DNA of 64,000 nt from Escherichia phage Turkey5: the sequence record PQ471516.1; one strand, given 5' to 3'. How positions within the stretch are numbered: the stretch's first letter is position 1; every line of letters starts with the position of its first letter. Positions 16,594 through 17,556 of this stretch are shown piece by piece. The notes under the pieces were generated by a model. It ran no database searches and was not told where the DNA came from. It saw nothing but the letters and a program-made list of their open reading frames with translations. The position numbers were made by a program, and so were the translations under genes.

Positions 16594-17556
16594 TTGAAAA
16601 AGCTAGATCTAAATGCAATTGCTGATGAAGTACTGGATGAATGTTTTGCTAGTGAAGAAGTCAACGTATTAGAGGCAATTGATGCCGTTGAAGAAGAACA
16701 TGATGACCACAAGTTCGAGAAGCCTAACACTGGTATCAGTTTAACTCGTCCTAAAGGTGTAACGAATGAAATGCTCATCCAGGAAGTACGTGATGGCATT
16801 AACGTTGAAAAGAACATTGACCTTCTAGTACGTTACAACTACCCAATGATTGTTAGTACTGCTCGTAAATGTACATGTTTCATCCCATTTGAAGATAAGA
16901 TTTCATATGGTGTTGAAGGTTTAATGCGAGCGATTCATACATTTGATCCTACTAAGAACGTTAAGTTCATTACCTATGCAACATCAACTGTGTATATGAC
17001 AATCTATAACGAAAGTGCAGACGCTAACTACTTAGTGCACTTCCCACGTTATATGAGTGTTAACAACATTTATGTGAAACGTTGTGTAGAAGCGTACCAA
17101 AAGAAATATGGTAGGTTCCCAACTCCAGAGATGGTCGCTGAAGAGACTGGTATTGAGATTCAACACGTTAAGAATTGTCTAACCTACACCAATACTTATA
17201 TGGCATTGGATATGAAATTGAGTACTGATTCAGAAAGTACCTTGTCTGACATTGTTACTACAGTTGATCCTGATTACAACTTAGGTGCAGAAACTATCAG
17301 TATTCCACTGGTACAAAGTATTGCAGATATGATGCATAATCTATCTGAAAAAGACCGTGAGTTGATTGAACGTGTACATGGTATTGGTTCTTGTGCTGAA
17401 CCAGAAACGCTACGAGAAATCATTGAGAGCGGTTTTGAAGATGAGAAGGGTAAAGTCATTACTGCTCGTTCTTCCTTGCACCGTAAGTACTCTGATGCAA
17501 TGGAACGCCTACGTAAGATGGTTAAGTCCAGAGGTTATGAGTTCGAAGATTTTTAA
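16594..17556 (+). CDS. sigma-70 family RNA polymerase sigma factor
   Basis: Region 2 GVEGLMRAIHTFDP..FITYATSTVYMTI; region 3 RFPTPEMVAEETGIEIQHVKNCL; region 4-like C-terminus; TTG start 7 nt after AGGAG. Confidence 0.75.
   Translation: MKKLDLNAIADEVLDECFASEEVNVLEAIDAVEEEHDDHKFEKPNTGISLTRPKGVTNEMLIQEVRDGINVEKNIDLLVRYNYPMIVSTARKCTCFIPFEDKISYGVEGLMRAIHTFDPTKNVKFITYATSTVYMTIYNESADANYLVHFPRYMSVNNIYVKRCVEAYQKKYGRFPTPEMVAEETGIEIQHVKNCLTYTNTYMALDMKLSTDSESTLSDIVTTVDPDYNLGAETISIPLVQSIADMMHNLSEKDRELIERVHGIGSCAEPETLREIIESGFEDEKGKVITARSSLHRKYSDAMERLRKMVKSRGYEFEDF

Follow-up and report, generated by a model that had tools for sequence, protein, structure and literature searches.

An RpoD-like sigma factor gene of an Asteriusvirus-type jumbo phage, its candidate middle promoters and a multi-copy structured RNA downstream of it

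Phage-encoded sigma factors of two types, minimal and RpoD-like, have been described by Iyer et al. as a defining trait of the 'group 2' jumbo phages (PMC7824862), and the RpoD-like sigma factor is also called a hallmark of this group in the Sharanji paper (PMC11895373). In phage CBB, the orthologue CBB_513 was placed in the early region and its regions 2, 3 and 4 were noted (PMC5259590), and in a review it is considered 'likely' that such phage sigma factors bring the host core enzyme to promoters of the phage (PMC7598289). The searchable literature yielded no experimental test of any of these orthologues. Here we analyze the sigma-70-family gene in 64,000 nucleotides (one strand, 5' to 3') of Escherichia phage Turkey5 (record PQ471516.1; this whole stretch is called the window), together with its promoters and the structured non-coding RNA that lies behind it. 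The gene is a known member of an annotated jumbo-phage family, is ordinary for its group and adds little by itself; the novel item is an undescribed multi-copy structured RNA with strong covariation. The best explanation of the locus as a whole, which we put at a probability of roughly 0.55, is that the sigma factor is made early and directs the core enzyme to a distinct class of middle promoters (class M), in a cascade leading on to a gp55-like late factor. Feature coordinates are collected in Table 1.

The preliminary description of this DNA had assumed a T4-like early region, in which a sigma70-type protein of about 320 residues was considered unexpected. Sequence identity instead places the window among the Asteriusvirus (121Q/PBECO4/RaK2-like, 'group 2') jumbo phages: its DNA shares 98.7% identity with that of Escherichia phage vB_EcoM_JNE01 (355 kb; genus Asteriusvirus), and the values for fEgEco12 and 121Q/PBECO4 are about 85% and about 78%, respectively. 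Because orthologues are routinely annotated and an RpoD-like sigma factor is a published hallmark of the group, such a protein is to be expected here. It is labeled 'RNA polymerase sigma factor' in 121Q (gp167), PBECO4, fEgEco12 (g519), RaK2, K64-1, CBB and others; the JNE01 orthologue (WOL22956.1) is 98.8% identical to the window protein, yet it is annotated as 'hypothetical protein'. Identity to the other orthologues is 87% (fEgEco12 g519), 57% (121Q gp167), 40% (K64-1/RaK2) and 33% (CBB). The neighbors of the gene are the same in JNE01, fEgEco12 and 121Q, with orthologue coverage of 100%.

The protein is almost certainly a genuine member of the sigma family. Its earlier reading as a full-length sigma-70 family factor agrees with the Pfam matches to regions 2 and 3, with the match to PHROG 351 ('RNA polymerase sigma factor', E 5.5e-47) and with alignments spanning the C-terminus. 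Sigma70_r2 scored 35.2 bits (cut-off 24) and Sigma70_r3 45.6 bits (cut-off 25.3), each matching all 21 family members examined. Region 4, which had been said to be recognizable by eye along with regions 2 and 3, is divergent but probably present: Sigma70_r4 (PF04545) has no match in the window protein at E<=1 and matches 8 of the 21 members (best E 3e-5). Alignments to RpoS/SigB profiles and to PDB sequences reach the C-terminus, and those to the PDB sequences of SigB and RpoS cover helix 4.1 as well as the first of the two helices of the region 4.2 helix-turn-helix. This helix-turn-helix carries an insert of about 13 residues (residues 279-291, window 17428-17466). The AlphaFold model (mean predicted local distance difference test score, pLDDT, of 70) shows the sigma2, sigma3 and sigma4 modules with good confidence; residues 231-312 are helical at pLDDT 77-90, and the insert forms a small hairpin between the two helices of the helix-turn-helix. 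The best Foldseek matches were sigma-S and SigA in initiation complexes, and the best PDB matches by sequence and fold were SigB, SigA and RpoS.

The core-binding motif of region 2.2 (DKISYGVEGLMRAIHTFD, of the pattern D-K-I-x-Y-G-x-E-G-L-M-x-A) is conserved, and region 3 includes an acidic loop resembling the 3.2 'finger'. Region 2.3/2.4 (FITYATSTVYMTIYN) keeps the Tyr and lacks the Trp-Trp dyad and the Gln/Thr of E. coli sigma-70. Among the -10-melting aromatic residues (Y430, W433 and W434 in E. coli sigma-70), Trp-Trp is replaced by Ser-Thr in the window protein and by Thr-Thr or Ser-Ala in other clades. The protein probably works with the host core enzyme.

Among NCBIfam models, RpoD_Cterm, RpoS, SigB, SigBFG and FliA were the best, with every score far under the curated cut-off (RpoD_Cterm, TIGR02393, 91.2 versus 354 bits; RpoS, 83.9 versus 378.7; SigBFG, 68.6 versus 234; FliA_WhiG, 63.1 versus 189.6). 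A group 1 (RpoD) assignment fails on the TIGR02393 score and on the lack of region 1.1, residues 1-55 being a family motif plus an acidic linker, and the NCBIfam cut-offs place the protein outside RpoS, SigB/F/G and FliA as well. Nor is it a small, region-2-only protein of the gp55 type, for it carries regions 3 and 4. What it shares with the jumbo-phage RpoD-like family is full-length similarity, the N-terminal motif, the region 4.2 insert and synteny. This family is a discrete full-length set of about 18-20 clusters at 50% identity (E<1e-44) before matches merge into generic sigma-70. Scanning IMG/VR with the family alignment gave 3 loci only, and GenBank phage records were used instead.

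The gene model is fixed by a non-ATG start and a conserved N-terminal motif. The AGGAG sequence noted previously upstream of the TTG codon is present, at a distance of 6 nt rather than 7, and an in-frame TAA (16591-16593) abuts the TTG, which rules out an upstream extension of the frame. The sole other in-frame start within the first 80 codons is an ATG at codon 60 (16771), without a good Shine-Dalgarno sequence. A downstream ATG that removes region 2 had been named as fatal to the sigma assignment; initiation at codon 60 would leave region 2 intact, as it begins at residue 78. Relatives start at the same codon, with TTG in JNE01 and GTG in fEgEco12 and 121Q, all with AGGAG and an abutting TAA; at the equivalent N-terminus, the start is a GVG-type GTG in CBB and an ATG in K64-1. 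Nine positions of the N-terminal motif (K2, L4, D5, L6, I9, V13, L14, D15 and F18) are invariant in the 21 aligned sequences, and a profile search of 1.8 billion proteins showed the motif in much more remote members as well. Behind it, a linker of variable, acidic sequence extends to about residue 55 (AlphaFold pLDDT below 50 for residues 1-49). Within codons 2-33, changes at the first, second and third codon positions number 4/0/5 relative to fEgEco12 and 7/3/7 relative to 121Q, the second position being spared. Thus, the Shine-Dalgarno sequence, the abutting stop, the same-codon GTG or TTG of relatives, the conserved motif and the sparing of second positions together support the TTG start well, as had been proposed. 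The same data bear on whether the gene might be a decaying or non-functional homologue, or encode a shorter protein from codon 60. The non-ATG start, the missing Pfam match for region 4 and the scores far under the curated NCBIfam cut-offs would fit such a view. Against it, intact copies (31-99% identity) are present in at least five genera, and regions 2.2, 2.3, 3 and 4.2 contain many invariant residues; in addition, second codon positions are spared in the first 33 codons and the N-terminal motif is invariant across the family; we consider this possibility very remote.

Table 1. Coordinates of the features discussed; positions refer to the window unless another sequence is named
Feature	Sequence	Position	Strand	Details
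Sigma-70-family factor, coding sequence	Window	16594..17556	+	320 aa, TTG start, TAA stop
Shine-Dalgarno sequence AGGAG	Window	16583..16587	+	6 nt before TTG; conserved in fEgEco12 and 121Q
Family-specific N-terminal motif MKKLDLNAIADEVLDECF	Window	16594..16647	+	18 residues, among the best conserved in the 21-sequence alignment
Sigma region 2	Window	16825..17013	+	Residues 78-140; Sigma70_r2 PF04542, E 1e-8
Sigma region 3	Window	17074..17262	+	Residues 161-223; Sigma70_r3 PF04539, E 8e-12
Divergent sigma region 4	Window	17284..17529	+	Residues 231-312; helix 4.1, LSEKDRELIERVHG; recognition helix, ARSSLHRKY
Predicted class E promoter	Window	11755-11782	+	12/12
Predicted class E promoter	Window	12379-12407	+	11/12
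Predicted class E promoter, nearest strong one upstream of the sigma gene	Window	13647..13675	+	TTGACA-17-TATACT
Predicted class E promoter	Window	15322-15350	+	10/12
Predicted intrinsic terminator, ends the early operon	Window	17561..17593	+	11-bp stem, 4-nt loop, T-run; 5 nt past the sigma stop
Predicted class M promoter, only one in the window	Window	17593..17620	+	GGGACA-N16-TACAAT, extended -10 TG
Structured non-coding RNA of about 440 nt, copy 'A'	Window	17692..18138	+	Behind the class M promoter 17593-17620
Structured RNA, further copies	fEgEco12	59940-60410, 110696-111225, 195802-196231, 307183-307630		
Structured RNA copy	K64-1, contig L016	3686-3966		
Structured RNA copy	Contig L013	16710-17088		
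Predicted E-type promoter over the RNA 3' end	Window	18127-18155	+	TTGACA-17-TAAGAT; TAGAAT in relatives
Divergent HslV-family peptidase homologue	Window	16075-16572	+	Directly upstream of the sigma gene; phrog_1040, E 1.7e-7
tRNA cluster	Window	219-4443	+	Gly-TCC, Ser-TGA, Ser-GCT, Asn-GTT, two Thr-TGT
Group I intron	Window	1685-1998	+	Rfam RF00028, 95 bits, full-length model

The window contains 25 near-consensus promoter sites (at least 11 of 12 matches to TTGACA-N16-18-TATAAT) on the plus strand and 2 on the minus strand, compared to 4.6 on both strands together in shuffled sequences. The 25 plus-strand sites are consensus promoters for host sigma-70, of the kind known from the early region of CBB, and a phage sigma factor is not required for them; they most likely drive early transcription, including that of the sigma gene. 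The earlier suggestion that the sigma factor redirects RNA polymerase to the many promoters of this region is unlikely as stated, since those are near-perfect host sigma-70 sites, which more likely express the sigma gene than are recognized by its product. Better candidate targets would be class M promoters, only one of which lies in the window. Between the class E promoters upstream of the sigma gene (Table 1) and position 17561, the sole plus-strand terminator-like prediction is weak (14385-14405; 7-bp stem with 3 G-C pairs and a poor T-run). As upstream consensus promoters feed the operon and a strong terminator closes it, the sigma gene is, by prediction, the last gene of a plus-strand operon that is read early by the host holoenzyme. 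An E-like site within the upstream gene (16454-16482) was dropped as a dedicated sigma promoter; it is not conserved in fEgEco12 or 121Q.

Promoter classes were surveyed in about 359.5 kb of the 374.7-kb fEgEco12 genome. Class E (TTGACA-N16/17-TATAAT) has 37 strict sites, all on the plus strand and only at 0-50 kb and 250-360 kb. Class M ([GA][GA]GACA-N16-TAYAAT; in its fuller form TG[GA][GA]ACA-N16-TGnTAYAAT) has 20 sites, also all on the plus strand, versus 0.9 in shuffled sequences, and its spacing is fixed at 16 nt. The only common dinucleotides before GACA are TT (22 sites) and GG/GA (17 sites), so that the two classes are discrete. They also differ in the extended -10 TG, which is found at 17 of 20 M sites versus 5 of 34 E sites. 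M sites precede the DNA polymerase region and genes for the clamp, gp32, primase, exonuclease, helicase, topoisomerase II and nucleotide metabolism, as well as the gp55-like gene, and a third class, L (TAAATA-type), is found before capsid, neck and tail-fibre genes. These classes correspond to the three types described for CBB and GAP32 (PMC5259590). De novo k-mer analysis of upstream regions without sigma-70-like sites gave no fourth promoter class, only Shine-Dalgarno and TAAATA-type motifs, and no convincing CBB-type TGAAAC promoter was detected in the window. The position of an M promoter after the sigma gene is kept in fEgEco12, 121Q and, with the box of its own clade, K64-1. The motif search for cognate promoters proposed in the preliminary description has thus yielded a distinct class M; we infer both its assignment to the sigma factor and the binding of core enzyme by this protein.

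These classes allow one alternative to be weighed, namely that the phage protein is a general replacement sigma factor, substituting for an inactivated or outcompeted host sigma-70 on classes E and M alike, with no separate middle regulon. E and M share the -10 hexamer and have similar spacing, and the best profile matches of the protein are to RpoD, RpoS and SigB rather than to extracytoplasmic function sigma factors. Its -35 recognition residues are, however, unlike those of sigma-70, and the -35 variants are discrete (TT versus G[GA]) without a continuum and occur in different genome regions and before different gene classes. We therefore regard a general replacement role as quite improbable.

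The gp55-like late factor is encoded in fEgEco12 by a separate gene, g336 (190974-191912), beside the gp47/46 homologues; this gene lies outside the window. Pfam gave no match for the g336 protein, and PHROGs resolved it (phrog_12791, E 1e-152; phrog_234, E 1.5e-16). The true start of g336 is probably about 35 codons downstream of the annotated one: the alignment to the PHROG covers the protein from residue 36 on, and the annotated 5' end contains a class M promoter (190988-191015), located just ahead of the aligned part.

In the favored cascade, the sigma gene would be transcribed early by the host sigma-70 holoenzyme from consensus promoters, with transcription ending at the terminator behind it. 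The product, translated from the TTG codon, would then bind the host core RNA polymerase via its conserved 2.2 and 4.1 surfaces, and its altered region 4.2 recognition helix would steer the enzyme to the 'middle' class TG[GA][GA]ACA-N16-(TG)nTAYAAT. Control would in this way pass from host sigma-70 to the window-type sigma factor and, for late genes, to the gp55-like factor. Class M is the most economical target of the sigma factor because late promoters have the gp55-like factor and no fourth enriched motif was found; that class M is its regulon is a proposal for which we see about even, perhaps slightly favorable, odds.

Further evidence for this assignment comes from a comparison of clades. 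When orthologous promoters are aligned on the -10 element, the -35 M-box reads TG[GA][GA]ACA in JNE01/fEgEco12, TGAAC[AG] in K64-1 and TGAAAC[GA] in CBB. The corresponding recognition helices are (T/K)(A/S)RSS(L/I)HRKY in the Asteriusvirus clade, TVRGTLHYKF in K64-1 and TSKATLSRRY in CBB; the equivalent in E. coli sigma-70 is presumably VTRERIRQIE. In a fourth clade (IMG/VR contigs L012 and L013), the sigma factor is 36-40% identical overall, its helix reads SRTSLHRCY and TG[GA]GACA boxes, which also go with the Asteriusvirus helix, are present on the same contigs. The hosts of these clades are all enterobacteria, and yet the M-box changes together with the recognition helix of the sigma factor. 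Moreover, the PA5oct-like phages appear to be without a window-type sigma factor: 11 records have a gp32 homologue, whereas no Pseudomonas entry appears among the organisms tallied for the sigma search, and plain TTGACA boxes are found at their orthologous ssb and primase promoters.

Several points weigh against the assignment of class M to the sigma factor. A reading of the -35 boxes of the clades as unrelated was rejected, since all are TGRRAC variants once aligned on the -10 element, and the covariation argument is for this reason weaker than first thought. Only four clades enter the covariation, phylogeny is a confounder, an activator specific to each clade (MotA-like) would produce it equally well, and the PA5oct contrast is a single lineage with a different host. 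Class M has a canonical extended -10 element (TGnTATAAT) and keeps GACA, so host sigma-70 could use it unaided. The phage protein lacks the residues that read the TG (H455/E458 in E. coli sigma-70, Y/V here); those that read position -12 are also changed (Q437/T440 to M/Y) and the W433/W434 dyad is gone. Region 2.4 differs between clades (YM versus RQ), whereas the -10 element does not. Finally, the link of the sigma factor to any promoter is sequence-based, and no experimental one was found in the searchable literature.

In a second alternative, host sigma-70 reads class M through the extended -10 element with the aid of a phage activator bound at the TGRRACA box, in the manner of T4 MotA/AsiA. 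Some different task would fall to the RpoD-like protein in that case, for instance serving a small regulon not seen here or competing with host sigma factors for core enzyme as part of host shut-off. The canonical TGnTATAAT of class M, the lack in the phage sigma factor of the sigma-70 residues contacting TG and -12, and the same architecture in T4 middle promoters speak for an activator. On the other side, the M-box follows the sigma recognition helix across clades, TTGACA replaces it in PA5oct, which appears to lack a window-type sigma factor, and no other enriched upstream motif could be the sigma factor's own regulon. In addition, tblastn with T4 AsiA as the query detected no AsiA-like open reading frame in fEgEco12, which is a weak test. 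On balance, an activator at class M is unlikely, and we retain the early-made sigma factor acting on class M as the preferred explanation.

Directly past the sigma terminator, the class M promoter of the window heads a stretch poor in open reading frames that encodes the structured RNA, whose start is predicted near 17627. About 17711-18200 is almost invariant among the window, fEgEco12 and 121Q, while the adjacent sigma proteins are only 57% identical. There are four paralogous copies of the RNA per genome, and in fEgEco12 a class M promoter with no open reading frame behind it precedes each copy by 75-100 nt. With nhmmer, one copy was located immediately behind the sigma gene of K64-1 and one on contig L013, about 5.8 kb past the sigma gene there. 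The family is conserved among genera of RaK2-like jumbo phages. Homologues with about 70% nucleotide identity also occupy unannotated gaps of 650-700 nt in CBB, GAP32, Serratia phage BF, Yersinia phage fHe-Yen9-04, EJP2, Munch and XbC2. A promoter with the clade-specific M-box is located 61-98 nt upstream of nearly every copy examined; the EJP2 copy has an extended -10 element only, with no clear box.

RNAalifold analysis of a 15-sequence alignment yielded 14 helices with 69 pairs, 39 of them with compensatory changes. The paired fraction of alignment cells was 97.5%, versus 38-47% when the partners were slid, and the covariation score was 0.518, versus at most 0.12 in controls, with none of 500 shuffles reaching 0.518. 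Because G-U pairs are conserved, the structure is specific to the plus strand. Rfam gave no family for any copy at gathering thresholds, nor at E<=10 for the window copy or E<=1 for the other copies; a resemblance of ACAGAGCAACCCGCUUUCG to RNase P CR-V was unsupported. No paper describing an RNA of this kind in these phages was found in the literature. An exact-pattern scan for the RNA returned 121Q only, and GenBank phage records were used here as well. In the relative PA5oct, four non-coding RNAs were detected by RNA sequencing in a study that also cites phiEco32 (PMC7318152).

The arrangement of sigma gene, M promoter and RNA is seen in both Asteriusvirus and Alcyoneusvirus, and the window copy of the RNA is a probable target of the sigma factor. 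In its most specific form, the explanation would be a dedicated sigma factor of the M regulon whose -35 specificity is set by the hairpin-bearing region 4.2, with a regulon that includes the four RNAs of about 440 nt and the module of sigma gene, M promoter and RNA; we put this forward tentatively, as a possibility that is more doubtful than the cascade as such. If it is true, one conceivable role of the RNA during takeover would be to act on the machinery of transcription or of translation. The concrete promoter targets and the covarying -35 box would make the early-middle-late switch of these therapy-relevant phages directly testable.

An E-type promoter overlaps the 3' end of the RNA (Table 1) and would drive a small open reading frame at 18195-18428; mutual interference between this promoter and the end of the RNA is possible.

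Further features of the window were also recorded. The HslV-like gene upstream of the sigma gene is annotated as HslV in fEgEco12, and its synteny with the sigma gene is kept across JNE01, fEgEco12 and 121Q. About 14 paralogous RCC1-like repeat genes of about 380-450 codons occupy 42724-58420 on the minus strand and are labeled 'chromosome condensation regulator' in fEgEco12. Seven genes of this array have TAAATATAGTATAAT (class L, no -35 element), preceded in six by a hairpin (GCCAGTACT-loop-AGTACTGGC) with a T-run, and this combination is likely a late-type promoter cassette. The group I intron lies within the tRNA cluster, between tRNA-Ser (1496-1585) and an open reading frame of 234 codons (2063-2767); a weak tRNA-like match at 479-557 (33 bits) was given by Rfam only and not by ARAGORN. 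The palindrome AGTACT is about 10-fold over-represented in the window, with 210 sites where base composition predicts 22 and a third-order Markov model 90, and the three most enriched hexamers are GTACTG, CAGTAC and AGTACT. The palindrome has 1023 sites in 361 kb of fEgEco12, is located in all coding frames, promoter spacers (TTCAGTACTGTATAAT) and terminator stems, and is also enriched in other genera (K64-1 and CBB), which suggests a genome-wide protein-binding or modification signal.

Compared with known systems, the window sigma factor is orthologous to the other jumbo-phage sigma factors (121Q gp167, PBECO4, RaK2, K64-1 gp304 and CBB_513; RaK2/121Q/GAP32/CBB-like, PHROG 351). All follow an HslV-like gene in the early region, are of equal length and have the N-terminal motif and the region 4.2 insert, and the window protein differs from them only in sequence (57% identity to 121Q, 33-40% to other genera). 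In the literature, the role already ascribed to these proteins is to guide host RNA polymerase to promoters of the phage (PMC5259590, PMC7824862, PMC7598289, PMC11895373). With bacterial group 2/3 sigma factors (RpoS, SigB, SigF/G and FliA), it shares the sigma2-sigma3-sigma4 organization without region 1.1 or a non-conserved insert, the 2.2 core-binding motif, the 3.2 loop and the 4.1 helix. It differs from them in its sub-cut-off scores, in lacking the Trp-Trp dyad and the -12/TG contact residues, and in having the 4.2 insert of about 13 residues, another recognition helix and a unique N-terminal helix with an acidic linker.

Bacillus phage SPO1 gp28 and phiEco32 gp36 are early phage sigma factors that move the host core enzyme to middle promoters. 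The logic proposed here would be the same, an early phage sigma factor replacing the host sigma factor and starting a temporal cascade; those proteins are smaller and more divergent, and the likeness drawn here is one of logic. Unlike in SPO1 and phiEco32, the -10 element of the middle class here still resembles that of sigma-70 promoters, and late genes have a gp55-like factor of their own. The lineage of the window resembles T4 in having such a factor (fEgEco12 g336) and TAAATA-type late motifs, and class M, like T4 middle promoters, pairs a good extended -10 element with a replaced -35 element. It differs from T4 in that the sigma factor is not gp55-like but carries regions 3 and 4, and in that the M-box TGRRACA occupies the -35 position, whereas the MotA box is at -30.

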